This document shows positions 1-28,940 of a DNA stretch of 64,000 nt, piece after piece. Position 1 is the first letter of the stretch. Every line of letters begins with the position of its first letter. A program made the position numbers and the translations under genes. This stretch comes from a virus (taxonomy: Duplodnaviria; Caudoviricetes). Below the pieces are notes generated by a model. That model was not told the DNA's origin, searched no databases, and saw only the letters and a list, made by a program, of their open reading frames with translations. Location of the stretch: the IMG/VR virus record IMGVR_UViG_3300006092_000342, positions 32,222 through 96,221 of that record; one strand, 5' to 3'.

Positions 1-3000
1 GATCTCCTTTTTCAGATAAATCTTGTAATTTACTTAACATTTCTTCAATACTATTACTGCTATTTAATTGTCGTAATAGGGATTCAACTCGATCCTTTAA
101 ATTGAAATTAAACGTAAATAAATTAGAAATTTTATTATAAGAAACTCCTTTTAAATTACGAACATCAGTTTGTTTTACAATTTTCTTAGTTTCTCCTTGC
201 AAAACATAATTATTAGGATCTCCTTCTACATTGTCTGCAGAAATAGTATCAGGAATATTATAGAGTAAAACCCTAAGATTAATTCCTAGTTTTTGAATTA
301 CATCTGCTTCAGTTTCTTTTACTATTCCTAGTTTATCCTGTTCTAAATCGTAAATATCATAGTTTATCTTTAAACCGTAGCTATTTGCTAAATCTGCTCG
401 TAAATCAGCATGGAGTGCCGGTTCATTCATTAGTCTTAAAAGAGACTCTAACTTAGAAATGTCGCTTTGATTTAACTCGTTATTTTGCTTGGCAAGATCT
501 CGAATTATACTTCGAATATGGTTTTTAACATCATCATATAAATCTTCTAAGCTATTGCTGATATCATAAGTATCATCTCCTTTTAAATTATTAATTAATT
601 TTAATGTATTTAATTTAAAATTAATACTATTCCCATCTAGAATCTCCGGCAAATAATTCCTGTTAATAATATTTACAGCTTCTTTTCTTCTTTCATTATT
701 TAATGCCGAATATTCAGGAGATAAACTATATCTCACACCTTCTGATATTTTTTTTGGCTTTACATTCTTATAATATCCTGAATGAAAGCGATCACTAAAC
801 AATTGAATTGCATCTCTTTGATTAAAAAGGGTATTTAGAATTTCTTTCAAAATTGCAATAAACCGTTTAATAAATCCATCAGGTAAATCTCTTGGATCTG
901 CTCTAACAATCTGCATTAAAGCTTCCTCTAATTCAATTTCACTTGTTAAAGGAATTCCTGTACGTTCCGCTACCTCTAAGAATAATTGTTTTTGTTGTTC
1001 CGGACTTAACTGATCAAATATAGCATGACCGAATTCTTCTTTTAAAACTCCTGTACTAATAAAATCTTTAGCAAAACCTACCATTTTGGTTCCTCTATCA
1101 AAATATCCATTATAGAGATCTTCAATAAGTTTATCATAAAATGTAATCTCAAATCCTGGGAAATTTTGCTGGGCCCAAACTCTAGCTTGATCTACTGATA
1201 AAGTTTCTTGATCAATAGTTGAACTAAATAAAGGTTTTATTAAATCAGATTTAGGCTTAACCTGTTCCGTCCAAAATGTAAGATCTCCTGTAGGTCGATC
1301 ATCTGCTAAATTAGTAATTAATACTCCATACTTGTAGATATAATTTTTTAAGTATTTTTGATTATTAAAATGTTCAACACTAACTTGACTTCTTTTATTA
1401 GATAAAGTAGTAGGTTCCCCTAGATTATTTATTACAATATTAGTATCTTCTTGAAAAAATTTTTGATACAACGCATCTGCATTATCTCCAAATTCAGTTT
1501 TTTTGTAATCGCTTTTATATTTTTTGGCCGCAGTTAAAATATCTACAAAATCTTTTGTTATAATTTCTTGCATTCCTATAAATTCTCGAAGTGCTTGAAT
1601 TACATTAATAGGAGCTTCTGCAAATAATGAACTATAAACCTCTCCGGATATTTTAGGATTAACTGTTTTAAGATAATTTTTTAAATTTTCTTTAGTGGGT
1701 TCAATTCCTTGGGAATCTGCATAAATTTCAAACTGAATATTATATCTAGAATAAACACCTTCATTATTCCAAATTTTATCTACCCAACGATTTTGCATAT
1801 AATCTTTACCATCATTGAATTTAATGGTAGAATTATCTACAACATTTATAATTTGATATTTACCTTCGATCTTAACTACATCATAATTAATATCCCCTCG
1901 AAATATTTTTTTTATAATACCTTCAAACCGCTTTGCAAAAATTGGATTATCTCCCCATGATTTTGTGATCATCCGAATTGGGAAATAATGCTGTCCTTTT
2001 TCTACATAACTTTTTCCTGTATTAATATTGCTTGGTAATAGCAAATGAACATCTCCATTATTTAAGTTGTAAAATAAAGATTGATCTTCTATAAGATTTC
2101 CATTATTCAATTCTAAGTACTGACTCCCTGGATCTTTATCCTTTCGTCTTACAATACCTAATAACGGAACTACCTCTTTATTAAACCAGGACAGTACACT
2201 CAAATTCTTGAATTTTTGTTGGACTTGTTTTTGAGCTCCTGGAGTATCTTTTGAAACCAGATTTCCTTCTTGATCTGTATAAATTTCTTCATAATTAATT
2301 CTACGATTAAATCCTGCTAGAAATTTAACTTCTTCTGTAACTGCAGGACTGTAATGAATAATATCATTATTAGTAACAATACCATCGGTTTCTCCAATTT
2401 TCTTTTTATACTCAATTGCTTTTTTTTGCAAAGCTTGTCTTAATGCCTGATTTGATTGATTAGTAGCCCCTGCAAATTCATGAAAACTTCCAACATATTT
2501 GACTTGTGCTTTACCTTCTTCTAATAAAGTTCGCATCAATTTAAAATCTTGTGTAACTTCTAAAGGGTATGGATTATTAGAAGTATCTGTAAATACTACA
2601 GCTGTAAGTTTTGTAAATCGTAATTTATCAGAATTTTCTCTAGCAAGAGTTCTGAAATTTAAAAAACCATACTCTTGGTTATAAGGAGTTTTTTCGCTAT
2701 AAATAAAATGAACAGGAGTTCCTGATTTAAACTGAGCACTATTTACAAAATCCTGGCCCTCTCGATGTAATTGTAATGTAGGTGCATCTAAACTAGCAGG
2801 AGCTTCCAAATTAACTACTTGGAAGTCTTTACCACTATTATAAAAAAAGCGGTCTTTACTATGAATTTGAGTTAATACAGGTTGATTTCTTTGGAGTAAT
2901 CCATTTTGTGTTTGTGCTATTAAATTACTTTGAGAATTAGCATGAAGCTGTATGAACTGTTCTTTAGACAAAAAATCATAAACATCTGCATTCTGTGTAA

Positions 3001-3082
3001 CAAAATCTAATGCTTTTTTTTTGCTATCAAAACTCTGTGTACCTCCTCCAGGAAGTTTTACAATTTGACAAGGTTGACTCAT
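1..3082 (-). CDS. Large virion cargo protein (partial, runs off left edge) with degenerate zincin-like domain; crAss-like virion RNA polymerase/cargo module
   Basis: Not in ORF track. ATG at 3082 overlaps the TGA of the upstream gene, and hand translation gives 1027 open codons to base 1 (MSQPCQIVKLPGGG...). Contains KEEFGHAIFDQL...LEEAL (motif at 1025-1039), an EExxH variant of HExxH. Position after the muzzle/cargo genes matches crAss-like synteny. No RNAP catalytic motif seen within the window. Confidence 0.8.
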   Translation of the reverse strand, partial: MSQPCQIVKLPGGGTQSFDSKKKALDFVTQNADVYDFLSKEQFIQLHANSQSNLIAQTQNGLLQRNQPVLTQIHSKDRFFYNSGKDFQVVNLEAPASLDAPTLQLHREGQDFVNSAQFKSGTPVHFIYSEKTPYNQEYGFLNFRTLARENSDKLRFTKLTAVVFTDTSNNPYPLEVTQDFKLMRTLLEEGKAQVKYVGSFHEFAGATNQSNQALRQALQKKAIEYKKKIGETDGIVTNNDIIHYSPAVTEEVKFLAGFNRRINYEEIYTDQEGNLVSKDTPGAQKQVQQKFKNLSVLSWFNKEVVPLLGIVRRKDKDPGSQYLELNNGNLIEDQSLFYNLNNGDVHLLLPSNINTGKSYVEKGQHYFPIRMITKSWGDNPIFAKRFEGIIKKIFRGDINYDVVKIEGKYQIINVVDNSTIKFNDGKDYMQNRWVDKIWNNEGVYSRYNIQFEIYADSQGIEPTKENLKNYLKTVNPKISGEVYSSLFAEAPINVIQALREFIGMQEIITKDFVDILTAAKKYKSDYKKTEFGDNADALYQKFFQEDTNIVINNLGEPTTLSNKRSQVSVEHFNNQKYLKNYIYKYGVLITNLADDRPTGDLTFWTEQVKPKSDLIKPLFSSTIDQETLSVDQARVWAQQNFPGFEITFYDKLIEDLYNGYFDRGTKMVGFAKDFISTGVLKEEFGHAIFDQLSPEQQKQLFLEVAERTGIPLTSEIELEEALMQIVRADPRDLPDGFIKRFIAILKEILNTLFNQRDAIQLFSDRFHSGYYKNVKPKKISEGVRYSLSPEYSALNNERRKEAVNIINRNYLPEILDGNSINFKLNTLKLINNLKGDDTYDISNSLEDLYDDVKNHIRSIIRDLAKQNNELNQSDISKLESLLRLMNEPALHADLRADLANSYGLKINYDIYDLEQDKLGIVKETEADVIQKLGINLRVLLYNIPDTISADNVEGDPNNYVLQGETKKIVKQTDVRNLKGVSYNKISNLFTFNFNLKDRVESLLRQLNSSNSIEEMLSKLQDLSEKGD

Positions 3083-6000
3083 ATATTACAAGGTCTAATT
3101 AAATTAGAATTTTCAAAAAGTTCATCCAAAGAAACACTATCATTTATTAATGGTATTTCTACACTATCATCAACAGGAAAATCATCCAAAAATAAAGTTT
3201 CATCATTCTGAATCTCTGGAATTTCTTCTTCTCTATTTTCTCCTTGGGAATAAAAAGTATTTATAATGCGTTTTTCAACTTCATTACGATCCGGAGATAA
3301 TACCAAAGCTTTTAAATCTGTAGTATTTTTAACTTGAGATAAAGCTTCTACAAAACTAGAATTTACTCCAGGAACATTATTTAACTGGTTAACCAACATA
3401 GTGCGTTCTGGCATAAATAAAAAAGAACGTTGAGCTTCACTGTTATTATAACGTTGATCTACCTGTTCTGGTGTTTGGCTCCCTGCAGCATCTCTTAATC
3501 GAGATAGAGCTGCTTTTATAATTGCTTTTTTCTTTTCTTCAAAAAGCTTTTTAGTTTTTGGATCTGAAGTTAAATCTGCTAAAGATTCATTATAGCCTTT
3601 TATTAAACTTTCAAAAGTATCATGGTTTAATTCTTCTCGAAAACCCATAGCATTGTTCACACCTCCTTCTCTAAAAAAGGAATCTACTTGTCTTTGAAAA
3701 TGAGCAGTTTCTTGTAAAAATTTAGCTTCATTTTTAGCACTTTTTTTCTGATCTACTAAATTAGAAAGATCCGCAGCTTCTTGCTCTGTTTGACTTATCT
3801 CTGAAATAACAGCTTCCGGAGATTTTCCAGTTTCCTCGACAGCAGTTTCGATAATATGCGCTTTATGTTCATCACTATCTTTTTTTAGATTTTTATTGTC
3901 TTTGATTAAATTAGTTAAAACTTTAGTATATGCTTTAACATAAGCATCATTTAATTTAATATCCTGCTCAATATTACCAACTTGAATAGGGTCTCCTTGT
4001 GTTTTATTTTTTTGCTCTTCTAAAAATTTACCCACTGATTGAAATTCAGTTAAATTTCCTACAGCTTCAAAAACACGTTTCCTTAATTCCGGGGTAATAT
4101 TATAATTTTTATTATTGAGATCTTTAAAAATTCTTTGACTGTAATCATAAGTTTGAGCTGTGCTAGCTAATGCATTTTCAATTTCACTAAACTGTGCTTT
4201 TATATCGTTTTTTGAGATATAGGGCGTACTACTCTTTATATCTAAATCGCCGGTACGCGCTTTTAAAGCTCCCAAAATATGTTTAACAGTATCATTATGT
4301 TCTACTCCATTTTCCCGAGCTTGATAATATAATTTATTCAAACCCTCTTGTTCTAGAACATGACGCAATTGCCAATCTTTACTTTGCTCTGCAGCTCCCT
4401 TTGCTATTTCATTTTGCATAGCTTCAAAAGCAAATTTTAGATGGCCAATAACATTTTCATCCATATTCAATGGATCCGTAATTACTGAATTTATTTTGTC
4501 TGTATCAATAAATTTCAACTTTTCTTTAATTCCTTTTTGGCGCATTTCTCCAAATCCCCAACGTGCTGCATTAAATCCTCCGGAAGTAGCCGCGCCTGTT
4601 ATAAAAGACATTGTTACTTCTGGATCCAGATTATACAAATCTTTAAAAGCAGTTAATCCCCCTCCTATAATAGTCTCCATACTAGAATTACTAGCAGAAT
4701 CTTTACTCCCCTCATATTTAGTAATATCAGTTTGAATACTTTCTTCATAACCTTCTTTACCAAGATCTAACGCGGCTTTACCCCAACGACTGGTCCAGGG
4801 TGCAAATAATTCATTAGTAATGGGCGCCACTTCTTCCGTAGCATTCCTGGCAGCTATACTGCCATAAGCACGACTCATATTAGATTTAGGAAACAAACCT
4901 AAAAGCTTATAACTAGCTAAATTGCTCAAACCTAAAATGGCTAGATTAGCTTTTCCCACATTTTCAGCTTTTGCGCGAGCAATAACTTTAGCTTCTTCCA
5001 TATCAGAGTCTTCTACAATTTTAGTAGCTTGTTCTGGTGGAATCCCGGTATCTACTAATTCTTTAATTTTAGCTTGAGTTGCCTCTTGCATGTATTGATC
5101 ATAAGCCTGGAATTTTTCTAAATCAGCTTCAAATTTAGTACCGCCAATCATGGCCCCTGTACTTCCTATAACTTCTCCGGTATGTTTACCTCTAGCTGCA
5201 GCTTCTTCTAAATCAACAGTAACTTTTCCTACTCGAGACTTAATGTAAGCTTTTATAGAAGGAGATTCAAAATCGGGTTTATCTATATATTTCTGAAGGG
5301 TTTCTTTCCATTTTAAAGTTTCAGCTCTTTGTGCATTTTTTAAGTTTAAATTACCTTTAACGGTCCCTAAACCTTTTCCAACAGCCCCGGCACCTTTAGT
5401 TACTAAAAAGTTAGAAGCATACAATCCTCCCATAAAGCCAATACCACTTTGTAATCCTGAAGCAAAAGTAGAAGCTACCCATTCAGGATTTTGCCATGAA
5501 GGTTCTCCTTCTGGACTTTTAAAATCGACAGTAATATCTTTTTTGAATTTTTCAAAATCTTTAGTGTACTGATCGTTATAACTATTTTCAATTAATTGCT
5601 TCTCTTCTTGATTATAACTTGGTTGTATCGGAGAAGTTTTTTGTTCCCAAGTATTTTGTCGAACATCATACGCATTTTTTATAGTTTCTGGACTTGGGAG
5701 TTCTCCATTTTTAGCCCACGCACCTAAGAGTTCTTGAGATGCTGAAACCGCAGAACCCACTGCTCCAAATAAATTAAGAGCACCTCCATATAAATCTTTT
5801 AAGGTTTTGGTCACTCCGGGAACACCTCCGGTTACAATATCTTTACCTACACCATACGTACTTTCTACAGTATTTACAGCAGCTTCAACAAGACCATTGT
5901 ATCCAATAGCTCCGATAGTTTTTGCACTTCCTAGAAAACTACTCCCATCTGTTACTCCAAAACCGAATTGAGCTTCTAGACCTGTATTAGACTCTGGACT

Positions 6001-6411
6001 TTCCTGTGGATAGATCGGACCTGGAGTTCCTCGAGGAGCTTCCTTATTTAATCTTCGTTGAGTTCTATTATAATTTTCGACTAACTGCTTTCTATCGTAT
6101 TGACCTATAAGATCCAAATTAAATTTACCGCTTTGTAATGCTTGTATAATTTCAGCTTTGGTACCTTCAATTTTAGTGCTATCTGCTTTAAAATCGCGGA
6201 AACTAGGTATGACAGGATCGTAAATTAAATCATCATAATTTACTTTAGAAGACTCTTTTCTTATCTTAGGATTAATTTCATAAATACCTTTGGATCCGTT
6301 ATTCCCATAAATGATTCCAAATCCCCCATCATCTTTTGGAATAATTTTTAGATCCCCTTTGCCTGTTTTAAAACCTTCGAAAAGTTTTGATACAATTTCT
6401 TCGGGATTCAT
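3079..6411 (-). CDS. Large virion cargo (ejection) protein
   Basis: 1110 aa with Gly/Ala-rich amphipathic segments (ASGLQSGIGFMGG, FITGAATSGG) typical of podophage ejection proteins; position in cargo block. Confidence 0.6.
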   Translation of the reverse strand: MNPEEIVSKLFEGFKTGKGDLKIIPKDDGGFGIIYGNNGSKGIYEINPKIRKESSKVNYDDLIYDPVIPSFRDFKADSTKIEGTKAEIIQALQSGKFNLDLIGQYDRKQLVENYNRTQRRLNKEAPRGTPGPIYPQESPESNTGLEAQFGFGVTDGSSFLGSAKTIGAIGYNGLVEAAVNTVESTYGVGKDIVTGGVPGVTKTLKDLYGGALNLFGAVGSAVSASQELLGAWAKNGELPSPETIKNAYDVRQNTWEQKTSPIQPSYNQEEKQLIENSYNDQYTKDFEKFKKDITVDFKSPEGEPSWQNPEWVASTFASGLQSGIGFMGGLYASNFLVTKGAGAVGKGLGTVKGNLNLKNAQRAETLKWKETLQKYIDKPDFESPSIKAYIKSRVGKVTVDLEEAAARGKHTGEVIGSTGAMIGGTKFEADLEKFQAYDQYMQEATQAKIKELVDTGIPPEQATKIVEDSDMEEAKVIARAKAENVGKANLAILGLSNLASYKLLGLFPKSNMSRAYGSIAARNATEEVAPITNELFAPWTSRWGKAALDLGKEGYEESIQTDITKYEGSKDSASNSSMETIIGGGLTAFKDLYNLDPEVTMSFITGAATSGGFNAARWGFGEMRQKGIKEKLKFIDTDKINSVITDPLNMDENVIGHLKFAFEAMQNEIAKGAAEQSKDWQLRHVLEQEGLNKLYYQARENGVEHNDTVKHILGALKARTGDLDIKSSTPYISKNDIKAQFSEIENALASTAQTYDYSQRIFKDLNNKNYNITPELRKRVFEAVGNLTEFQSVGKFLEEQKNKTQGDPIQVGNIEQDIKLNDAYVKAYTKVLTNLIKDNKNLKKDSDEHKAHIIETAVEETGKSPEAVISEISQTEQEAADLSNLVDQKKSAKNEAKFLQETAHFQRQVDSFFREGGVNNAMGFREELNHDTFESLIKGYNESLADLTSDPKTKKLFEEKKKAIIKAALSRLRDAAGSQTPEQVDQRYNNSEAQRSFLFMPERTMLVNQLNNVPGVNSSFVEALSQVKNTTDLKALVLSPDRNEVEKRIINTFYSQGENREEEIPEIQNDETLFLDDFPVDDSVEIPLINDSVSLDELFENSNLIRPCNI

Positions 6412-6420
6412 ATATAAACT

Positions 6421-8766
6421 TTATTTTTTTGGTAATCCTGGTAATTCTAACTCAGATGTATCTTGTAAAATTAGATCCAGTTCTGTTTTTTGTTCTGGAA
6501 TTTCTTTATGAAATTCAACATGGAGATGAGGTAATACTTCAGGATTAATATGTTCTTCTATTATCTGACTTCCTTGTGATTTAAGATTATCTAAAACTAA
6601 GGCCCCCTCTTGATCATTAGATTCCAAAATAGCTTTACGATATTTACGAACACTCGCAGCATCCGGTCCTTCAAAAATTATTTTTTTAATTGATTTGGCA
6701 TAGTTATCATTAAATAACCTTAACCCCGCCACTACAGCTTTTGGATTCTGTCCCGTAAAATCTAACGCAGTTCCTCCTTGAAGATGGGCACTATCTGGAT
6801 TGCTATCTAATCTAATACCTTTTGTATCTGCAGCTCCGCTAATTGCTTGTTCTAAAATACCGGGATACTTATTACTTAAATCCTTTACTTTACTAAATAG
6901 TTGTGGATCTAAACTCAAAATTTGTTCCGCATTTAAATCTCTGAACTTAGTATTTTTTACAAATTCTATATTAGAAGGATCCTGTGAGTTTAATTTCAGA
7001 TTTTCATTTAATGCCGGTGTTGAACTATTTGTAGAAAATTCGCCCTTAGCTTTATACATTTTATAAACTTCTTGACCGGTTTTTATATTATCATCCGTAA
7101 GTACTTCTCCTTGAAATGGAGGAGAAAATATAATGTCTTTTATTCTAAAGCGAGGAATTCCATCTGATCCGGGTTTATCATAATCCATGCTTACTTTCTT
7201 ACGAATTTCTTCATTAGACAACCCTTGCTTACGTGCATTAGCAATATACTGCTGAACAATCTGTAAATTATTTGTTACAGCCTCTCCTACTGTAATGCTC
7301 ATACCTCCTATTTCATCATTACCTCCCATTGGAGTTTCATTTACAACATTCCAATATAATTCTTGCGGAGGTTTTCCCGGATATTGAATTGTTAAATTTC
7401 TATCCGGAGAAGGTCGTTTAATAACTGTATTATTAGAATCAAACGGTAAAAACCCTTTATCTACTATCGAAGTATTAGAACTTAAAGGTTTTCCATCAGG
7501 TAATGTAATAGCTTCAGTCCAATCTCCAATACCAGGCAAGTTAGATAAATCTCCTACCTGATTATCTGGAATTCCGATATCGTGAGTTTTTCGTGTACTT
7601 AAATCTTGAGTGCGTTGTCCTGGATTATTGTCTTCGCGTGGGTTTATAGAAACAACCTTGCCGTTATCAAAAACAGAAAGGACACGACCTGCTCTTTGAC
7701 TAGATTTACTTTCTACCCATTCTTTTGCTAACTCTTTTCGCTTTGTAGCTGGATTGGTCCAATAAATGCTAACAGCATTTCCTTCATATTTATTAGGACT
7801 GCCGGCTGCTCCCGGTACCATAAAGGTCTTCTCCATTCCTTCTTTAATACTCTTATCTACAATAGGATTTCCAGTTCCATAGTTGAAAGTCATACTACTT
7901 CCCGGAGTCATAGTATTGTAACTATATCTACTATTATTCCAAGCTCTCCAATGATCTTCTAAAGATCTCGGTTTAAATGTAGGATCTTCTTTTTGTTTTT
8001 GCAATTCATTTTTGTAAGATTCAAGAGCTCCTCCAAAGTCTATTAAATCATTCCCTTTTACACTTCCATTTGCAATTCCCATTTTAATAATACTAGGAAC
8101 CAATGGATCTGTTAAGATATCATCTATATATTTTTGGTTTTTCTTAGTTTGTTCTAAGGCATAATTCTTTGCAGTTGTATCTGCTAAACTTTCTTGTGTT
8201 GCAGCATTTGAATGGGCAATATTGGCATTAACAGCTGCATCTTGTAACTTCTGAGTCTGATCATCGAAATAGTCAGTAATATTCAGTCCTTCAAAACTAC
8301 TTCCTTTTGTATTTGCAATTTCATCTAACTTTCCATAGTAATTAACTGCATTTCTTCCTAATTTCTCTTTTAAAACTTCTCCTCTTTTTATGTATTCATC
8401 CATTTTCCCATAATCCAACATTGCATTACGCATTTCAGGATGTTGTAATGCAGAAAGAAGCTGAGATTGTAATTCAGTAGCTTGATCGATATTATGGACC
8501 CCCCGTTTTAAAGTTTCTTCTACAGGAGCTAAATGCATAGCTACTACATCTGCATCTTTAGGGAGATATTTTAAATTTTTAAATAACTCATGACTTTGGT
8601 ATAAATTCTCCGTCACGAACTTCTGTTCTTGAAGTTGTCTATTTTTTTCCTCGCCTATTAAAGCATACATCTTTAATAAAGCATTTGTATCTAATCCTCC
8701 ACGATCATCTCGCGCAATTCTAGGAGCATTAATAGGCGCTGGAAGAATTCCTTGTGTTAGTGGCAT
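6421..8766 (-). CDS. Virion cargo protein with C-terminal M15/LAS-type Zn peptidase-like domain
   Basis: SAHLQGGTALDF...PHLHVEF resembles the SxH...D...HxH signature of LAS peptidoglycan peptidases. Start moved to ATG 8766, just after the upstream stop. Confidence 0.6.
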   Translation of the reverse strand: MPLTQGILPAPINAPRIARDDRGGLDTNALLKMYALIGEEKNRQLQEQKFVTENLYQSHELFKNLKYLPKDADVVAMHLAPVEETLKRGVHNIDQATELQSQLLSALQHPEMRNAMLDYGKMDEYIKRGEVLKEKLGRNAVNYYGKLDEIANTKGSSFEGLNITDYFDDQTQKLQDAAVNANIAHSNAATQESLADTTAKNYALEQTKKNQKYIDDILTDPLVPSIIKMGIANGSVKGNDLIDFGGALESYKNELQKQKEDPTFKPRSLEDHWRAWNNSRYSYNTMTPGSSMTFNYGTGNPIVDKSIKEGMEKTFMVPGAAGSPNKYEGNAVSIYWTNPATKRKELAKEWVESKSSQRAGRVLSVFDNGKVVSINPREDNNPGQRTQDLSTRKTHDIGIPDNQVGDLSNLPGIGDWTEAITLPDGKPLSSNTSIVDKGFLPFDSNNTVIKRPSPDRNLTIQYPGKPPQELYWNVVNETPMGGNDEIGGMSITVGEAVTNNLQIVQQYIANARKQGLSNEEIRKKVSMDYDKPGSDGIPRFRIKDIIFSPPFQGEVLTDDNIKTGQEVYKMYKAKGEFSTNSSTPALNENLKLNSQDPSNIEFVKNTKFRDLNAEQILSLDPQLFSKVKDLSNKYPGILEQAISGAADTKGIRLDSNPDSAHLQGGTALDFTGQNPKAVVAGLRLFNDNYAKSIKKIIFEGPDAASVRKYRKAILESNDQEGALVLDNLKSQGSQIIEEHINPEVLPHLHVEFHKEIPEQKTELDLILQDTSELELPGLPKK

Positions 8767-8767
8767 G

Positions 8768-11545
8768 TTATTTAAAAGGTTGGCCTGTAGATAATTGTAT
8801 TCTTTTTTGAGCACTTATAGGCCCTTGCAATTGTTTAAATCGCATTAATTTTTGAAATCGCTTATCGTTATAAAAGTTAGTAGGATTGCTAGAAATAATA
8901 CTAGAAATTTCATTATCTGCACTTTCTTCGGTAAGATCTCCAAATTCATCTACAGTTGTATTACTTAAAGTTTTAGTAGGAGTTGCAGTTGAAACAGTAG
9001 AATTTATCCCCTTTAAAAAGGAAGAAGTTCCTACAGGCATTCCGGTCATTCTTCCAAACTTATCCATAACTTTCATCAGGTGCTTTGACATAATTAAATT
9101 AGAAATCTCACCTTCTTTTCCAGATTCAAAAGCTTGTTTAGCTTGAGATTCTTGTGCAGATAAATTTCCTAAATTAGAAATAGTATTTACCAAAGGCCTG
9201 GTAACATTAAAAATATACTGATTTTGGAACTCTTTGTTTTTATTAACTTGTGCTGTATAATTTGCTAAATTCTGATCTTCTGCTGCAGCCCTTTGTCGAT
9301 CTAATTGATCATTACGGATTCCTGCATTTAAAACAGCTTTGTTTCGTTCGTTTACATTATTATTACTAGAAAGATAAAAAGGAACTTTTTGTGCACTTAC
9401 CCCTTGATTTTCTAATACTTGCATTTTTATAGCATCTTGATCCGCTAAACTATTATCATATACTCTTGCAATTCTACTTACATCCTCTGGTTTAAATTTG
9501 CGAGCTTGCAACTCAGAACTCGTACTGTAAATATCATTAGCAGGATTTTGTAAAGCAGAAGCAGCACTTGCAGCTATCCCAGACCCTACTGTAAATAATC
9601 GAGCTGTATTTAAATTTGAATTATCAAAGTTTTTATTTTCTAAGTCTTTTAATCTTTTATTAATGTAATCTTCTATTTCACTTCCTTCTTCATAACGTCT
9701 AACTTCCATTCCTTTCTTAGCTTCGGGAATTTCAGCTTGTTCCGGAGTATCTCCACGCATGAGAGTATTTAAATCTTTAACCAAATCTAAATAAGGAATT
9801 CTGCTTTTTTTATTTCCTTCCCAAGCCATTTTATCGAAAATATCGGTTTCAACATTTTCCGGTTTTTTGTATTTGTTTAAAACTTTCTTTAAAATAGCTA
9901 CAGGAGTTAAACCTTTTGCTTTACCATAAAATTCACCTGCAAGAGTTTTTTCTTGTGCCTCCGGAAGTTTCAGGTCTTCACTATAAAATGCAGGAGTTAA
10001 TTCGGTTTTTATTTTCTCTGCTAGCTTACGAGGCACTTTTAGATTTTTGTCATTACTGACAACATAAGCCCCGGGAGCTATAATATTTCCCATTTCATCC
10101 CTTTCCAAGGGAGTTAAAGTATCTGTTACTTTATTAGAATCTCCACTTGATTTATATTCTTTATGAGTCTTTTTTGCACCAGGTTTTGTTACATCATAAT
10201 TAGGATGGATTACTAATTCCTCTTTACTAACTTGTAAAGGCACCAAATTATTTGCAGGAACTATCTCCGGAGCTTCTCCACCTGATTGTCTTATAGGAAT
10301 TTCAGTAACATAATCTGCACTAGGAAACATTATCCGTTTAACCCCTGCTTTCATAACCTTCAATTTACCTACATTTGGAATTCCTAAAACATCAAACGGT
10401 GTATTTTTCATAGTTAGGTGATTGCTTGGAATAATATTAAAATCATTTTCGAAACTGTCAGTTCCGGGAGTATATCCGGTTTTGTTTACATTTCCTCCGG
10501 CTTCCATGTATGCTACTCTCCCTGTATCGCCATTAATACTATTTGCGGCTAACCAGGCTTTATTTTGTTGTTCAGTCTGATCAGCTTTATTAGTAGCATT
10601 AATTGCATACTTCATTAAAGAAGCTGCTCCCTGTGTAATAGCTCCTATAGGCCCTGCAGTCATAAATCCTCCGATAGTACCTAAAGCAGTTCCCCCTATA
10701 ACTCCTTTTTTATCTCCTTGTAACCCTACTCCATCTGCCTGACTACTGATTAGACTGCCTAAAGGTGCTGTATATTTTGTATAATCCTTCCCGGTAAGAA
10801 AACCTAAAACATCCCTTTTTTTACCCTTTTCTGGATCAAAAGGAATATCATCAAAATTACTAGAAGCGGAAGCCACACTTCCGCTGACGCTGGGATTAGG
10901 TTCCGGAATTGGGTTAAAAGGCTTTAATTCAGGTTGTAAAAAATCATCTTCAGGCCGGGAATCTTCTCCATAAGTAGGAGAACCTTCTTGTCGCTTTGCA
11001 ACACGAGCTTTGGGATTGAAAGTATTAACATCTTTCCCATCCTGAATGATCTTATACATTTGCTCAATGTAATCGGTTTCTGCTTGGCGACTTGGCAATG
11101 ATTTTGCCATGGTATAATCAAACAGATAATTCTTGGTTGTTTGCGGAAAATCCGGATCTCCAATCGCCTTTTTAATATTACCCTGATATTTCTGATATAA
11201 ACTCCGGGCTTTGGTAGGTCCCATATTATAAGCAGCAGCATTCCAATGTTCATCCTTAAACCCGTACTCTGCTAGAATTGAAGAGTATTTCATGCCCCCG
11301 GCTAAAGCTTCTGGTCCGGTTAAACTCTTGTAATCTCTATTTTTAAAATAACCTTTTTTTTGGAGTTCTTCGAAAGCAATAGGACTTAATTGAAGGGGGC
11401 CTGCTTTTCCATTAGTTAAATCTGGTTTGGTTAGGTGTGCACTGTCATGACGACTTTCTACCCAGGCTAATCTCTCATAATGTTTGGGAGACATTAAAAG
11501 TCCCCCGTATGGAGATCCTCCCTGTTGTAGATTGTCATGTTTCAT
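8768..11545 (-). CDS. Virion cargo protein with N-terminal lytic transglycosylase (SLT-like) domain
   Basis: WVES (catalytic Glu), GPLQL, AAAYNMGP and TKNY are the SLT motifs; the rest is low-complexity with recurrent xxGG/xxGS motifs. Confidence 0.75.
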   Translation of the reverse strand: MKHDNLQQGGSPYGGLLMSPKHYERLAWVESRHDSAHLTKPDLTNGKAGPLQLSPIAFEELQKKGYFKNRDYKSLTGPEALAGGMKYSSILAEYGFKDEHWNAAAYNMGPTKARSLYQKYQGNIKKAIGDPDFPQTTKNYLFDYTMAKSLPSRQAETDYIEQMYKIIQDGKDVNTFNPKARVAKRQEGSPTYGEDSRPEDDFLQPELKPFNPIPEPNPSVSGSVASASSNFDDIPFDPEKGKKRDVLGFLTGKDYTKYTAPLGSLISSQADGVGLQGDKKGVIGGTALGTIGGFMTAGPIGAITQGAASLMKYAINATNKADQTEQQNKAWLAANSINGDTGRVAYMEAGGNVNKTGYTPGTDSFENDFNIIPSNHLTMKNTPFDVLGIPNVGKLKVMKAGVKRIMFPSADYVTEIPIRQSGGEAPEIVPANNLVPLQVSKEELVIHPNYDVTKPGAKKTHKEYKSSGDSNKVTDTLTPLERDEMGNIIAPGAYVVSNDKNLKVPRKLAEKIKTELTPAFYSEDLKLPEAQEKTLAGEFYGKAKGLTPVAILKKVLNKYKKPENVETDIFDKMAWEGNKKSRIPYLDLVKDLNTLMRGDTPEQAEIPEAKKGMEVRRYEEGSEIEDYINKRLKDLENKNFDNSNLNTARLFTVGSGIAASAASALQNPANDIYSTSSELQARKFKPEDVSRIARVYDNSLADQDAIKMQVLENQGVSAQKVPFYLSSNNNVNERNKAVLNAGIRNDQLDRQRAAAEDQNLANYTAQVNKNKEFQNQYIFNVTRPLVNTISNLGNLSAQESQAKQAFESGKEGEISNLIMSKHLMKVMDKFGRMTGMPVGTSSFLKGINSTVSTATPTKTLSNTTVDEFGDLTEESADNEISSIISSNPTNFYNDKRFQKLMRFKQLQGPISAQKRIQLSTGQPFK

Positions 11546-14500
11546 TATCTGAGGCTGATTTTATTTTTGTCAACACATATTTTAAAATCGTTTGGACAGA
11601 TTTGTCTAGATCTTGTCGTACAAAACGATACCTTAAATACTCATCAAAAAAGACACTATCATTGGCATTTCCAAAAGTTTTGTCAAATTTAATTAAATCT
11701 TTTAACATATTGGGTAATAAGCCGTTAACCTTTTCCAATACTGCTGTAAGATCTTCTGGAGTAGATACCTTATTTAGAACTTGATAAAATTCATACTGCA
11801 TTGAATTATAACTTGTTACAGCTAAATCTCGAGGATCTGATACTGAATTTGGATTCTCGACAAAAGTTTTTAGTAATCCTGAACTTTGGTAATTATTTAA
11901 AATTCCGATATAATCAAAAAACTTATCAACTCTTCTCCATTTACCGGCAAATTCATCCCAAATCATATTTTTTAATCCTACTAGCGTGCTTGCATATTCA
12001 AAACCACGCCCGAATCGATTATTAAATTCCCGCGAAACTATGTCAATGATAAACGGGTATTTTATATCATAGAATACCAAATAAGAGTCTTTATTGTCAG
12101 CATGGCGCCATAATTTTCCATCATTCCAGTTATACATGTAGTTCCGATCCCACGTATAATAATCAGGAACATAGCTATGAAATCCTACAAAAAAACGTTT
12201 TTCTTTCCCTATGTAATAACTTAAAGTAAAACTCCTATTTTCAAACCATTCAGGATTCCCTAATTCAATCACGGTATTCGTACCTTTTAAATAAAAAATA
12301 TCATTGACTAGCTTAAGCTTTGTTGGATTTTTACATTTCCAGTCTTTTTTGGTTATTAAAATACGACTAAATCTATGATCAATTCCTAAAGAGAAACCGG
12401 TTTTATGCCCTTGACTAATACCCGGGTAATCTGGGAAATCTTCTGCTAAATACATGCGGATATTATTTTTAAAAAAAGATTTAAGGCCCCTAGTACTCAA
12501 TTCGTCATTTGAGCCTGTCCAATTATTGATCGTTCTAGCTTTCCGATCGATAAAGAAATGACCCCATTCTGAGGTAATACTAGCGCTAGGATCAATACAT
12601 CCTCCTTTACCTTCAGCAATATTACCAAAAACGTCATAAGGCTTTCCAAAGAAACCACCATCTCCTAACCGAGCTTTATCCCCATTACTGATATCTATGC
12701 TCATTTGGCCGAAACGTAAATCTTTTATTGAATCTGATGTTTGCGCCCAAACTCTGTTTCCCCAATGAATTAGATTTTTGATCAATCCAAAATTGGTATC
12801 TAAATCAATGTAATTATTAATTTTAAATCTTCGGAAAGCATCTCCTTTACTAGCAACATTTTGCTTATTGCCAATATAAACACGCCCGTTAAGCTCCCCT
12901 AAACATTTGCACAAATTATATCCAATAGGGACACCATAGTTATACCAGAGCAGTGTGAAACTTTTTGACCAATCATACTTATTATGTAAGTCATGAAACC
13001 CTTTTATCCCTCCAATTTTGGGACCGCCATCTTGATCTCCTAAACAGCTATCAATTCCTAATAATAAAATTAAATTTGTGTTTCTAGTAATACTTAAAAA
13101 AATCACATAAAAAGCTATTCCTAAACCAATCATTACATATCCTAACACGCTGGTTAAACTAATCGCAGACATCGCTCCATACATTAAAATACCTACTGCA
13201 AGTCTAATAATAGTGTTTGCCCATAGAACTAATTTATCTAATTTACTCAACCCTACAATAGACCAGTACATTCTAGATAACCACGAAATTTCTTGATCAG
13301 TCTTTGGCGGAAAATTAGGATCTAACTCCTGATTCTTAAGTTTTGGATAATAGATTTCATTGAAAGGAGCTCTTTCATCTCCCAAGATTCTAGCATGTAA
13401 ATTGACTTTACATTCTACCATAAAGGTATTGTTACTAGTAAGAACTCCAGGCCAATATTGGCTTAAACCTCTATATCCTTGAAAAGGTGTAGTACCATCC
13501 CAAGGATTTCCAGGACGAAGCATATTATTGTTTCTAGGATCATCTTCCCCGCTTTGTGGAGGATCTCCGCAATCACTTACGCCAAAAATTTGTTCAAAAA
13601 AGTTAGAAGGATTTACATTAAGACCAACCCGATCTGATACTACAGAATGTCTCTTTACGGAATATTGTCCAATATAAACATCCCCCGCTAATAAATTAAC
13701 AGCACCACAAATACTTTCCGTTTCTGTCAATAAATGAATATCTGCATATTTTGCATTCTCAATCCTTCCATATTGATTTGGAATATTTCGAAGAAGAACT
13801 GCATAATGACAAGATGCATTATGAATATCTGCTTCATGATATTTTCCATCTCCCATAAAAGAAAAATCACATGTATTATTGGCAGCGAGATTTCCAAAAT
13901 TTCGATTGCCATTATAGCTATTATCAGATAAAAAAGGATCAATTCCATGTTTTAATGTCGGAAAACTTCCAGGTTCTAATTCTAGATATACACTTGATTC
14001 CCGAAATTTATTCATTAAACTAAAAGTGAATCGATCTTCTTTATTGACTATCTTATTAGCTTCTGCATATACTGCAGCTTTTACACAATATAAACTTGGG
14101 ACTTCTCTATATTTAGGTTCTCTACGATTTTTTGCAAAAACACAAACTTCTTTAAAAACTGAATTATTGTTTACATCATACGTTACGGTAAGTCCATTTT
14201 GCAATACTGCAGAATATAAACAACCTTCGTTTGTTTCGACCTCAATAAAACACTCACAAACAAATGTAGAATTAAAGGGTAAGTTCTTAGTTGTATTACT
14301 ATCTCTGTAATTAGTTTTTCCTAATAAATCTATGGTTAAGTCATTACCTTGATTATCTAATAAACGTAGTTTAAAAGTTTTGATTCCTGTAGGAGCTGTT
14401 ATAATTTTTACTTCTCTTACTATAACAAGTCGATTAGCTGGTAATTGATTAAGCTGAATAAAAAAGCTAAAACAAAGTTCTTGTGTACAATAACCTTCCT

Positions 14501-17500
14501 CTACTAGTATTTTACTACTATTCCTATCATAATGGTTTAAATGAATCGCTTGTCTACATCCTTTTCTATTATAGTATCTCGCGGAATAACTATCTGGTTC
14601 AGTCATTTTACTGCTGGTCCCGTGTCTTCTACCCGAACCGTATATTTCTAGTGGACACTTTATTTGAGAAATATTTAAAGGCGGTTTTCCATATTGTGTA
14701 TCTGGACTAAAAAACACATATGCTGGAACTGTTGGAAGTATTCCTCCACGACTAGGAGTTCTAGAATTGTCATTTAACCATTTAATATCCATGCTAAACT
14801 TCTCTAAAGAGTTTACACCATGGTTAGGATACATGAAAGATTGAGCATGCAATTGTCCTTGGAAACAACCGACTAACTTTCCCTTTGCAATAACTCGACT
14901 ATTACTATCATCCCTGGGCTCCATACCAATCTTCCATTGGCGAATATTACATCCAGGTTTTATATAATCTTCAGAGTCTAGATCTGGAATTCCTGTAATA
15001 ATATATCCCAATAAAATAACATAAGCATCATTACTTTCTAAATTCGCAGGATCTAATCGATGTGGCACCCCATTTTGAAAACTAATATAATGAGGAAGTA
15101 CACTTTCATCCGGACCCAGAATATGTCGTATAGGCATTCCTGCATCTTGCCCATAGATAAAATTACCATTACAATCTTTATCTAATGGATAAGTCTCCGT
15201 ACTTTCCCAATATCCGCACTCTCCTTCTGCAAAAATTGGAAGATCATAATCAATAATATTGCAACCTTTTTCATCATAAATAGGAACTGGTTCGCATATT
15301 TTACTATTAAGAGCCTGACTTAAAGTAGGAGTAGTTTTACGATCAAATTGATAAACAGGAGGTTGATAAACCGGACGTTCATATATTTTAACTTCTGTCC
15401 CATCTCTGCGACGAATTATTTGTGTCTTTAGATCTAATTCGGATTCATTTTCCCAAGGTATTGTCCATTTTTTTCCAAAGAGTTGCATTAAAGGTTCACA
15501 CTTTTCCGGAATACAGCAAAGAATTGCTTTAAAATCAAAACTTTCCCAAGGATTTAAAGCTCCATATTCTGATAAGATACACGTATTACTATCATCGTTA
15601 TACCAAATAGGATTTTTTGGATTTGTAGGTAAACACCCCTGTTCCGGACAATCTGTATTACATCCTGCACATCCAGAAGGACAATCTTCTTTTTTACATT
15701 TAGTTAAACATTCTATATAACTAGAATAGTCTCCGTTATCATCAGGTAAACACCCCTGATCAGTACACCTAAAACGGCCATCTTGACTATATTCACAAGT
15801 ACTTCTACATGCCAATAAACTGCTGAATTCTCCATCCTCGGCAGCTTCACAAGCCCCATTAGTACATCGATACCTCTCTTGCCCATTTATATTGCAATGT
15901 TTTGAACACTCAAATAAGGTACTATAAGGCCCTTCGAGATCTGTAACACAATTTCCATTTGCCGGATCACATCTCCATTTACTAGTACGCTCTGCAGAAC
16001 AATTATCTTTACATGCTTGATAACTTCTCCATTCTCCATTTTGTCCTGCAGCAATACAACCGGTTTCTCTACAATCATATGTTTCTTCAGGCTCCTCATT
16101 ACATTCGCACCATCCTGTTATAGCATTTACGAAATCATCCAGAGTTCGACCAACAACAATTGAATTACCACTCATGCAGTCAAACTCAAAGCTGATATCA
16201 ATATAATCTTTAGGATCTCTATCGATTACTACGAGATGTACATTATATTGAGGTAAAGCAGCTGCTAATTGTCCCCAAACACCGCTGGCATCAAAAGCAT
16301 CACATGCAGGACAATTTGGAGTTTTATTATAAGTAATAACAACATCACAAACTCCGAGTCCTATCTGCTCGTTCCCCGTATTGTAATAACTACTGCCTGT
16401 ACTATTACCAGAACAACCTTGACTGCATCCGCCGGTACAAGAAGTACCAGAACACCCGCCAGAACATCCTGAACATTTTGCACCACAATTTTGACATAAT
16501 CCATTTTTACAACAACCTAATCCATAGCAACTTTTACTACAAGTAGCAGTGCATGGTCCTTGAACCGCTATACCTTGATAAACACTTCCCGGATTACAAT
16601 GACGACCTTTAGGACATCCTGAATTAGGATCGGTTTCATCTTGTTTATCTATTTTTAAACTAAATGCAGATACCTGGGAATCTTCCATCATTTCGTATGG
16701 ATTTCCACAATACCACTTAGTAACACTTGCAGTATTTTCTACTTGCCAGCGTTCCAACTCGCATTCAGTACAATTTCTAGGATCGGAAATAGGTATTTTT
16801 TCCCGATCATATGGAGTGGCTCGTCTCCCTGGAATATGACCAAACCTACTATAAGTACCATCACACCATACTTTTGAAAGCGCCAAACTCATAACCTCAT
16901 CTCGAGGCATGCTAGTGTATTTATGCGCTTCTGATAGAGGTGCTAATTTTGCAAACCACCTTACTCTTAAATTCCGACTATATTTAAGTATTGGAAAATT
17001 AGGTTCTCCATACGTATTAAATAGTACAGCATGTCCGTCTATAATATCAATATCTTCTCCCCTAATATAAGCTATGTCTTTATTTCGGATATCATCTATT
17101 GTAATCGGTATTCCGCTAAACTGTCTATGATTTGTAAGAAGAACTTGTTGTTTAGTTCTCGTGAAAGGAATTTTTGGTAGAAGTTTTACACTTACCTCAA
17201 AACCAATATTCCGAACAATTGCTATTTCTATAAACTCAAAATGTGCACTTCTATTTCCTTCTACAACAATATCGATTGCGTTTTCTGAAACTTCTCCCGG
17301 AATTTGATTAGGACTATCTAAAATTAAAGGATCACTTCCCCAAAAGAAATTTGTATGGTTATTATCCTCATCTGTTAAACGAACAAAAGCATAATATTTA
17401 CCTCCAACAAGATCTAATCCTCCATACTTTACTTGACGTAATTTAACCAAAGGACCGCAATCACAAGGCAATAGAAGTAAATCTTCATAAGTAACATCGC

Positions 17501-17960
17501 AAAAACTTTTACTAATATTTAATACATAGTATGTACTACAAGCAACGAAAATAACATGATGTTCTCTACACTCTCCTTTTACAAAAAACTTAGGTTTAAT
17601 CTTTTTACTAATTCCAAAATTTAATTTTTTTGTGTACTTGGAATCGTTTAAATACGTACTATACTCTTTTGTAATTAAATTTACTTTTCCGATTTCAGAA
17701 GTACCTGTAGATTGATTATAACTAAAAACAAGTAATTCATTTTTGTCAGGAATTAAAATATCTCCTCTACTTACAAATCCTTCTGGAAGACTTGCTATGA
17801 ACTCTAAAGAAGGTTCACTTGCAATTCCATAATTCTCATGATCTTCAGTTTCTACTACTCCATTTAAAAGAAAAGACCATGTACCAGGTACTTGGTTTTC
17901 CTCAAGATTTGCTAACCATAAGCCCGCATTGAGATCATTTTGAATTTGGTCTTTCTTCAT
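11535..17960 (-). CDS. Tail muzzle / stabilisation protein (P22 gp10-like, crAss Tstab) with Cys-rich and thioredoxin-like insertions
   Basis: 2141 aa. C-terminal FTLSY...FVGFHSYVPDYY and CGYWESTETYP...IRH motifs resemble crAss-like Tstab; follows the tail-tube gene. Confidence 0.75.
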   Translation of the reverse strand: MKKDQIQNDLNAGLWLANLEENQVPGTWSFLLNGVVETEDHENYGIASEPSLEFIASLPEGFVSRGDILIPDKNELLVFSYNQSTGTSEIGKVNLITKEYSTYLNDSKYTKKLNFGISKKIKPKFFVKGECREHHVIFVACSTYYVLNISKSFCDVTYEDLLLLPCDCGPLVKLRQVKYGGLDLVGGKYYAFVRLTDEDNNHTNFFWGSDPLILDSPNQIPGEVSENAIDIVVEGNRSAHFEFIEIAIVRNIGFEVSVKLLPKIPFTRTKQQVLLTNHRQFSGIPITIDDIRNKDIAYIRGEDIDIIDGHAVLFNTYGEPNFPILKYSRNLRVRWFAKLAPLSEAHKYTSMPRDEVMSLALSKVWCDGTYSRFGHIPGRRATPYDREKIPISDPRNCTECELERWQVENTASVTKWYCGNPYEMMEDSQVSAFSLKIDKQDETDPNSGCPKGRHCNPGSVYQGIAVQGPCTATCSKSCYGLGCCKNGLCQNCGAKCSGCSGGCSGTSCTGGCSQGCSGNSTGSSYYNTGNEQIGLGVCDVVITYNKTPNCPACDAFDASGVWGQLAAALPQYNVHLVVIDRDPKDYIDISFEFDCMSGNSIVVGRTLDDFVNAITGWCECNEEPEETYDCRETGCIAAGQNGEWRSYQACKDNCSAERTSKWRCDPANGNCVTDLEGPYSTLFECSKHCNINGQERYRCTNGACEAAEDGEFSSLLACRSTCEYSQDGRFRCTDQGCLPDDNGDYSSYIECLTKCKKEDCPSGCAGCNTDCPEQGCLPTNPKNPIWYNDDSNTCILSEYGALNPWESFDFKAILCCIPEKCEPLMQLFGKKWTIPWENESELDLKTQIIRRRDGTEVKIYERPVYQPPVYQFDRKTTPTLSQALNSKICEPVPIYDEKGCNIIDYDLPIFAEGECGYWESTETYPLDKDCNGNFIYGQDAGMPIRHILGPDESVLPHYISFQNGVPHRLDPANLESNDAYVILLGYIITGIPDLDSEDYIKPGCNIRQWKIGMEPRDDSNSRVIAKGKLVGCFQGQLHAQSFMYPNHGVNSLEKFSMDIKWLNDNSRTPSRGGILPTVPAYVFFSPDTQYGKPPLNISQIKCPLEIYGSGRRHGTSSKMTEPDSYSARYYNRKGCRQAIHLNHYDRNSSKILVEEGYCTQELCFSFFIQLNQLPANRLVIVREVKIITAPTGIKTFKLRLLDNQGNDLTIDLLGKTNYRDSNTTKNLPFNSTFVCECFIEVETNEGCLYSAVLQNGLTVTYDVNNNSVFKEVCVFAKNRREPKYREVPSLYCVKAAVYAEANKIVNKEDRFTFSLMNKFRESSVYLELEPGSFPTLKHGIDPFLSDNSYNGNRNFGNLAANNTCDFSFMGDGKYHEADIHNASCHYAVLLRNIPNQYGRIENAKYADIHLLTETESICGAVNLLAGDVYIGQYSVKRHSVVSDRVGLNVNPSNFFEQIFGVSDCGDPPQSGEDDPRNNNMLRPGNPWDGTTPFQGYRGLSQYWPGVLTSNNTFMVECKVNLHARILGDERAPFNEIYYPKLKNQELDPNFPPKTDQEISWLSRMYWSIVGLSKLDKLVLWANTIIRLAVGILMYGAMSAISLTSVLGYVMIGLGIAFYVIFLSITRNTNLILLLGIDSCLGDQDGGPKIGGIKGFHDLHNKYDWSKSFTLLWYNYGVPIGYNLCKCLGELNGRVYIGNKQNVASKGDAFRRFKINNYIDLDTNFGLIKNLIHWGNRVWAQTSDSIKDLRFGQMSIDISNGDKARLGDGGFFGKPYDVFGNIAEGKGGCIDPSASITSEWGHFFIDRKARTINNWTGSNDELSTRGLKSFFKNNIRMYLAEDFPDYPGISQGHKTGFSLGIDHRFSRILITKKDWKCKNPTKLKLVNDIFYLKGTNTVIELGNPEWFENRSFTLSYYIGKEKRFFVGFHSYVPDYYTWDRNYMYNWNDGKLWRHADNKDSYLVFYDIKYPFIIDIVSREFNNRFGRGFEYASTLVGLKNMIWDEFAGKWRRVDKFFDYIGILNNYQSSGLLKTFVENPNSVSDPRDLAVTSYNSMQYEFYQVLNKVSTPEDLTAVLEKVNGLLPNMLKDLIKFDKTFGNANDSVFFDEYLRYRFVRQDLDKSVQTILKYVLTKIKSASDNET

Positions 17961-28065: not shown

Positions 28066-28940
28066 TACGAAAGATTACAATCTGTTAAATAATTTGTGAA
28101 ATCTTGTTTATATTTTATTTTGCATAAATCATAAGTTTTATTCTCATGAATCATAAATAAACAAGTATCACGATATTCGAATTTCAAACCAGGATTACAA
28201 GTAACTACTTTGTAGATTTCCTCATATCCCAAGCCGCATTTTTTTAAATATGTATATGTATCTAAATTTAAAATACATACCTTTTTATCACTATACGAAG
28301 CATCTAATTTACATTTAGCTATAAAGTCCGTATAATTAAAGTCAATTTCGCAAGTTTTTTGAATTAATAACTCATACTCAGTTATACAAGAAGCATGATT
28401 AACATCTTGATTTGTAACTGATTTGGTTTTCATTACAAAATCAAAAAGAATTTCATTAGGAATTCGTTGCGTTTGCAATAAGTTAATAAAGTCTTCTACT
28501 TTATTTTGCTTTTCAAATTCTTGAAATGAAAAATCAAAAACATATTCACACGCAATTCCAATATCTTTTAAAAATCTAGAACGACTTCTACAACGTTGGT
28601 TATCCCAATCCGGGTTATCCGATACAAAAACATCAGAACGACATTCTTCTTTACACCCAACTACCCAATTTTTTAATGTTTCAATTAATCGACAGATATA
28701 AGCATCTTCTACACAACTCTCAAACCCTTGCTTTACTTTAAAATAATATCTTCTTAAACTTTCATAAACAAAACGAAATAATTGGATTTCTTTTTCATCT
28801 TGAACATCTCTAGTGCGCCATTGAAATATGCGAGCTTTTATCTCCATATTCCTAGAAATAACGATACCTGCTTTGTGTAAAAGCAGGTCAAGTTCGAACA
28901 AATCTATGTTACAACACTCGGATTTCATATCGTTACACAA
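28065..28940 (-). CDS. Hypothetical structural protein (tail hub-like region), Cys-rich
   Basis: 291 aa; coupled start/stop with neighbours. Confidence 0.55.
   Translation of the reverse strand: MCNDMKSECCNIDLFELDLLLHKAGIVISRNMEIKARIFQWRTRDVQDEKEIQLFRFVYESLRRYYFKVKQGFESCVEDAYICRLIETLKNWVVGCKEECRSDVFVSDNPDWDNQRCRSRSRFLKDIGIACEYVFDFSFQEFEKQNKVEDFINLLQTQRIPNEILFDFVMKTKSVTNQDVNHASCITEYELLIQKTCEIDFNYTDFIAKCKLDASYSDKKVCILNLDTYTYLKKCGLGYEEIYKVVTCNPGLKFEYRDTCLFMIHENKTYDLCKIKYKQDFTNYLTDCNLS

Follow-up and report, generated by a model that had tools for sequence, protein, structure and literature searches.

Three giant proteins encoded side by side in an uncultured crAss-like phage of the Caudoviricetes carry cysteines at the termini that face one another across their gene junctions, and we consider it likely that they form a head-to-tail cargo chain through these terminal Cys pairs, most likely as disulfides. 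The window analysed here is a stretch of 64,000 nucleotides, positions 32222-96221 of the 96-kb metagenomic IMG/VR virus record IMGVR_UViG_3300006092_000342, from a clade in which none of the sequences come from cultured phage. In order, the proposed chain comprises a 1110-amino-acid (aa) protein, an RNA polymerase of 2918 aa and a protein of 1923 aa. All genes in question lie on the minus strand. The comparative pattern described below points to an end-to-end tether of a previously undescribed kind, probably a disulfide.

At the first junction, the single Cys of the 1110-aa protein is residue 1108, third from the end (C-terminus ...L-I-R-P-C-N-I), and the open reading frame (ORF) stops with a TGA at 3079-3081. 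The polymerase ORF opens with the ATG at 3080-3082 and reads M-S-Q-P-C-Q-I; an earlier in-frame start is impossible because a stop codon lies two codons upstream. Its Cys5 is the sole Cys among the 1027 codons that fall within the window, and the span 3062-3096 runs exactly from Ile7 of the polymerase to Arg1106 of the 1110-aa protein. The initial annotation had reported the lone C-terminal Cys of the 1110-aa protein, the M-S-Q-P-C-Q-I start, the ATGA overlap of the two genes and their coordinates, as well as the absence of Cys from two further cargo-type proteins of 925 and 781 aa, and all of this is confirmed from the sequence. Its description of the facing residues as the only two cysteines is valid solely for the portion that the window shows; the full record adds Cys1951 and Cys2916 of the polymerase.

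Read from the whole record, the polymerase has three Cys (5, 1951 and 2916) and ends ...Y-K-K-C-M-Q-TGA, again with an ATGA overlap, here with the gene of the 1923-aa protein. The latter begins M-K-K-C-I, which places a Cys at position 4, and it has the same length of 1923 aa in the protein database; an alternative upstream ATG would give M-Y-A-M-K-K-C. The facing Cys residues are thus found at positions -3/+5 at junction 1 and -3/+4 at junction 2. Both outer ends of the chain are free of Cys, the 1110-aa protein starting M-N-P-E-E and the 1923-aa protein ending ...V-N-K-P-K. Over the 5951 aa of the three proteins, four of the seven Cys fall within the four five-residue windows that face the junctions, an arrangement with a chance probability of ~4e-10. 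The cargo block as a whole contains 0.09% Cys, compared to ~1.5% in the remaining ORFs of the genome. For comparison with other genomes, we defined a terminal-Cys chain rule operationally from the survey described below: a Cys in the last 10 residues of the upstream protein and in the first 8 residues of the next, together with outer ends that lack Cys and a near absence of internal Cys. This genome displays both features.

The pattern is retained in close relatives. Homologues of the 1110-aa protein are few, and all those with a complete C-terminus (P0002, P0003, P0006 and P0007) have exactly one Cys, located 1-3 residues before the end, as in the ...K-P-C-N-V terminus of P0002; wherever the next gene is visible, its product has a Cys at position 3-5. 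In locus L014, a 1159-aa protein ends ...I-N-C-N-F-R and the polymerase starts M-E-K-P-C, a start shared with the next gene of L016. Cys5 and Cys2864 are the only Cys of the L014 polymerase (2865 aa), and the protein after it begins M-E-M-P-C. The corresponding junctions read ...G-K-C-D-stop / M-S-C-Y in L002 and ...K-P-C-D-L-stop / M-K-D-C-Y in L017. The PCxI motif that the initial annotation had recognized on both sides of the junction is present in our genome and is lineage-specific; the relatives conserve the Cys alone.

The central protein of the chain can be related to the cultured crassviruses. Its motif Y-R-I-P-T-E...G-F-D-F-D-A-D, at residue 2041, in which a YRIPT-type strand of the second barrel comes before the DFDxD catalytic motif, aligns with the catalytic DFDID of phi14:2 gp66 (BLASTP E 7e-5), and its catalytic region matches a five-phage crAss-like profile with an hhalign probability of 98.2% (E 2.7e-14). 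These alignments identify it as a predicted virion-type RNA polymerase of the phi14:2 gp66 type. Furthermore, the terminase is closest to Cellulophaga phage phi14:2, and the gene order is that of phi14:2, with GroEL, terminase, portal, major capsid protein, tail, cargo and polymerase. The phage-encoded GroEL-type chaperonin (window 47208-48854) belongs to PHROG 5725 (E 4.5e-115) and is comparable to phi14:2 g105. The three giant chain proteins, the polymerase included, are probably packed in the virion and injected.

The counterparts of these proteins in cultured and reference crassviruses display the same terminal arrangement. In phi14:2, the only Cys of g067 is its final residue, g066 has two (residues 3 and 2179 of 2180), and g065 starts M-S-C. 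In crAss001, the only Cys of gp47 is residue 2339 of 2341, gp50 has Cys5 and Cys2404 of 2412 residues along with one internal Cys, and the only Cys of gp49 is at position 5. The upstream partner, polymerase and downstream partner of DAC17 and IAS virus follow the same pattern. The gene for the upstream partner in crAss001, DAC17 and IAS lies kilobases away on the opposite strand, in convergent orientation, and its product nonetheless retains the C-terminal Cys. It follows that the pairing is constrained at the level of the proteins and not by way of translation.

Where neighbouring proteins are fused, the Cys of the corresponding junction is lost. In five phages (cr55_1, cr50_1, cr60_1, Fpv2 and Azobacteroides phage), the upstream protein is fused to the polymerase; the N-terminal Cys is gone, the C-terminal Cys is retained, and the protein that follows has a Cys at position 3-5. 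The converse fusion, of polymerase and downstream protein, occurs in cr3_1, which retains Cys3, has no C-terminal Cys, and is preceded by an upstream protein ending in Cys. We surveyed 80 IMG/VR loci, grouped into 36 clusters at 60% identity. Where the polymerase is encoded separately and the gene downstream of it measures 1200 aa or more, the Cys pair is present in 27/27 clusters. Among background ORFs of the surveyed loci, a Cys falls within the first 8 residues in 11% and within the last 10 in 12%, from which a pair is expected at 1.4% per junction. A Cys occupies position 3-7 in all 22 unfused polymerases, all seven upstream-fused forms lack the N-terminal Cys, and the proteins in which everything is fused (5472-5711 aa, three clusters) contain none at all. 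In every cluster but one, 0-4 residues follow the C-terminal Cys. Judged by these sequences, the terminal-Cys rule spans the Crassvirales, being kept where the genes are separate and lost where they are fused.

The survey did not include L038, L041 and L062, which have broken or recoded frames, L072, whose polymerase ORF is frameshifted, and L054. The last of these appeared to offer a Cys-free unfused C-terminus, a candidate that was rejected because the ORF is shortened relative to that of the 91%-identical L056. Mapping of fusion points by BLAST gave a match in L068 only, where the N-terminus of a split-type polymerase aligns near residue 1150 of a 4631-aa fused protein whose only Cys is C-terminal. 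The residues flanking the terminal Cys are mildly enriched in basic side chains (17% vs 12%), too weakly to build on. The single ORFs with a polymerase motif in which all parts are fused are found in L089, L092, L094, L095 and L096, and small genes come next. Under translation table 11, the polymerase frames of cr60_1 (L008) and L062 contain many stops, 55 of them in the fused cr60_1 protein, which is consistent with stop-codon reassignment in these two lineages; in L062 and L064 the frame is open much further if TAG is read as sense. The terminal-Cys rule holds in cr60_1 despite the interrupted frame.

Outside the polymerase, similarity to known proteins is limited. Searches of PHROGs and Pfam with the 781-, 925-, 1110-, 2918- and 1923-aa cargo proteins returned no significant family, and PDB chains compared with the 2918-aa protein, a profile of the 1110-aa protein and the 1923-aa protein gave only chance-level, unrelated matches at E <= 1. 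The 1110-aa protein and its alignment found no relatives in the viral contigs collection, a megablast search of the window against the phages collection gave no match, and a homologue search with the N-terminal 500 residues of the polymerase and of the 1923-aa protein recovered only the queries themselves among full-length proteins. In the 1923-aa protein, the N-terminal ~60 residues (L003 6370-6550; C-I-N-L-K-H-P) are the sole part with similarity elsewhere, matching in BLAST the downstream proteins of six crAss-like loci (L067, L073, L077, L082, L084 and L085) at 37-46% identity. This N-terminal segment beside the Cys may represent a conserved docking module. The zincin domain that has been reported in gp65 orthologues was not found in the 1923-aa protein, which contains no HExxH motif.

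A feature of the nucleotide sequence could in principle place matched Cys codons at a junction, such as a ribosome hop between them, a reinitiation signal or the scar of a gene fission. Direct repeats are indeed present at both junctions, ACCTTGT occurring twice, 20 nucleotides apart, within window 3062-3096 and AAATGTAT twice, 17 nucleotides apart, within L003 6530-6565, and the TGT-to-TGT distances of 20 and 17 nucleotides both match the intergene frame shift. The repeats are, however, explained by the use of the same dipeptides (Pro-Cys and Lys-Cys) in the preferred codons of an A+T-rich genome, and they are missing in L014, L002 and L017, which have other spacings and frames. Together with the distant, opposite-strand partners of crAss001, DAC17 and IAS that still carry the Cys, these repeat-free relatives led us to reject the ribosome hop, the fission scar and the DNA repeat, and we regard an origin of this kind as very improbable. 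Chance placement of a rare residue in Cys-poor proteins has only the small number of Cys in its favour. Given the value of ~4e-10 for this genome alone and the 27/27 clusters against 1.4% expected per junction, its probability is negligible.

Two explanations at the level of the proteins deserve more weight. The terminal Cys might bond to other targets, such as a further copy of their own protein, the portal, the tail barrel or the inner capsid, and so anchor the free ends. Disulfides between proteins are numerous in the tail and portal vertex of crAss001 and would fit such a role, as would the polymerases of L053, L058 and L060, which have terminal Cys and no adjacent partner gene. An anchor to a third protein, however, should outlast fusion or occur at the outer ends of the chain, whereas the numbers of Cys are always matched, the outer ends never carry one, a one-sided fusion removes exactly the two Cys of that junction, and the all-fused forms have none; we therefore consider this explanation unlikely. 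Alternatively, the termini might be docked without a covalent bond or bridged by a metal ion, with the Cys as a contact residue or ligand. In cyanophage A4, the C-terminal helix of gp27 is accommodated by a cleft in gp26, a contact to which the disulfide is only supplementary, and the N-terminal ~60 residues of the 1923-aa protein, with their C-I-N-x-K-H type of start, would suit a conserved docking module. Against this, the Cys is the sole conserved residue at the ends, no conserved His or second Cys is available nearby for a metal site, and folded interfaces are unlikely to form 0-4 residues from a C-terminus and at position 3-7 of an N-terminus, so that docking or metal bridging appears distinctly improbable. 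A metal clasp had been proposed as one option in the initial annotation, and this part finds no support. The linking of consecutive cargo proteins, for which the same annotation had offered a disulfide, is strongly backed by the comparison, and the check it had named as potentially refuting, conservation of the terminal Cys as a pair in homologues, shows them paired in kin and across the Crassvirales and absent on fusion.

Several points weigh against a disulfide-linked chain. The chain proteins contain three internal Cys besides those at the junctions, Cys1951 of the polymerase and Cys1742 and Cys1752 of the 1923-aa protein. The clusters of the survey are related to one another and their counts overstate independence, although the split and the fused states are each found in several lineages despite this kinship. 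The polymerases of L053, L058 and L060/L061 carry terminal Cys with no visible adjacent matching partner: L053 and L058 have no large downstream gene, and the 787-aa upstream neighbour in L060 has no C-terminal Cys. The partners of the L053, L058 and L060 polymerases may be encoded elsewhere. The habitat of gut crassviruses is anoxic, which makes disulfide formation less obvious; the crAss001 tail nonetheless contains disulfides. Finally, the bond has been seen in no experiment or structure of any crassvirus. A complex prediction that combined the C-terminal 151 residues of the 1110-aa protein (three-row alignment) with the first 300 of the polymerase (two rows) speaks neither for nor against the link, its score being 0.18 (mark 0.32) and the fold of the partner itself uncertain.

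In the disulfide chain that we favour, the polymerase would be bonded at both ends, through its Cys5 to Cys1108 of the 1110-aa protein and through its Cys2916 to Cys4 of the 1923-aa protein. A disulfide is the likely chemistry because one Cys per end is conserved and no other ligands lie nearby. The bonds would form once the particle meets oxidising conditions. Each would take the place of a peptide bond in the polyprotein relatives and would hold the three proteins at 1:1:1 in a single thread, so that pulling one protein through the tail could draw the next along. With overhangs of only 2-5 residues and hardly any other Cys, the linked chain would be near-linear and free of internal cross-links, and it could be threaded through a narrow channel in a partly unfolded state. 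Once in the host cytoplasm, the three proteins would come apart by reduction. In crAss001, the packed cargo includes gp47, gp49 and gp50, whose exit through constrictions of <50 Å requires partial unfolding, and the virion contains several inter-protein structural disulfides in the tail and portal vertex (PMC10172136). The near-terminal placement of the Cys and their purge from the remainder of the proteins fit a cargo that unfolds for such constrictions. A broader proposition, to which we give somewhat less than even weight, is that throughout the order the polymerase and its two partners always form one covalent thread of ~5500-6000 residues, either as a polyprotein or through terminal disulfides, with the disulfide form acting as a redox switch. 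If this is true, the disulfide chain would be extruded as one thread and fall apart only in the reducing cytoplasm, where the polymerase would be released and perhaps activated.

The closest parallel is found in the cryo-electron microscopy structure of cyanophage A4, in which a disulfide joins Cys1715 of gp27 to Cys5 of gp26, two ejection proteins inside the capsid (PMC12002296). As proposed here, a Cys of the C-terminal region of one ejection protein is bonded to Cys5 of another, in the same geometry. The A4 bond differs, however, in being a single one, in one phage, that stabilises a pentameric pre-ejectosome ring (PMC12002296); the system has no polymerase in the chain, no order-wide rule and no covariation of fused and split states. 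Since none of the three chain proteins has PDB similarity at E <= 1, A4 offers an analogy and not a homology.

With phi14:2 g067-g066-g065 and crAss001 gp47-gp50-gp49, our chain shares the gene order behind the structural genes and a giant two-barrel DFDxD polymerase in the middle, and the cargo proteins of both phages are packed in the virion and have a terminal-Cys pattern identical to that of this genome. The flanking proteins differ, with no detectable similarity to g067/gp47 or, past the first ~60 residues, to gp65-type proteins, and the first link is much shorter (1110 aa as compared to 1797-2341 aa). The giant crAss-like polyproteins contain the same components in the same order, joined by a peptide bond where our chain has a Cys pair, and we read them as the covalent equivalent of the Cys-linked chain. 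Such fused polyproteins were noted in the preprint on the phi14:2 polymerase and described there as 'likely cleaved'. Neither this preprint nor the crAss001 atlas (PMC10172136) mentions the terminal Cys, and full-text literature searches found no paper describing a terminal-Cys link in crassviruses. The atlas left the cargo proteins without a resolved structure and states only that their order of extrusion is probably set by packing and mutual interactions (PMC10172136).

Crassviruses are the most abundant human gut phages, and the proposed chain bears on how they pack and eject a polymerase-associated cargo of ~700 kDa. A Cys pair that is interchangeable with a peptide bond constitutes a concrete model that can be tested cheaply in the cultured phages phi14:2 and crAss001, and it would account for the stoichiometry of the cargo, its order of exit, its release, and the purge of Cys elsewhere in the giant proteins. 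Non-reduced and reduced virion data from liquid chromatography-tandem mass spectrometry already exist for crAss001 (PMC10172136).

Table 1. Coordinates of the cargo genes and of the two Cys-bearing junctions (window numbering unless stated)
Feature	Position	Strand	Remarks
Polymerase, codons 1-1027	1..3082	-	gene continues beyond the window to record position 26547; full length 2918 aa
TGT codon, Cys5 of polymerase	3068..3070	-	read from sequence
ATGA stop/start overlap, 1110-aa gene and polymerase gene	3079..3082	-	read from sequence
1110-aa cargo protein, first link of the proposed chain	3079..6411	-	ORF; position of phi14:2 g067 and crAss001 gp47
TGT codon, Cys1108 of 1110-aa protein	3088..3090	-	read from sequence
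781-aa cargo-type protein (797 aa from GTG)	6421..8766 (8814 from GTG)	-	Cys-free
925-aa cargo-type protein	8768..11545	-	Cys-free
Second junction, polymerase gene and 1923-aa gene	record 26547-26559 = window -5674 to -5662 = L003 6547-6559	-	outside the window

The 781- and 925-aa proteins have no terminal Cys and lie outside the chain. Counterparts of the former in L002 and L016, and of the latter in L002, are likewise free of Cys. The outer virion and tail proteins encoded at window 11535-17960 and 23701-28065 are very rich in Cys, which makes up 80 of 2141 residues and 141 of 1454 residues (9.7%), respectively, in sharp contrast to the cargo block. At window 28925-28940, the end of a 669-aa protein (...S-S-C-V-T-I) faces the start of an overlapping 291-aa protein (M-C-N-D); both proteins are Cys-rich (3-6%), and these facing residues may reflect chance placement.

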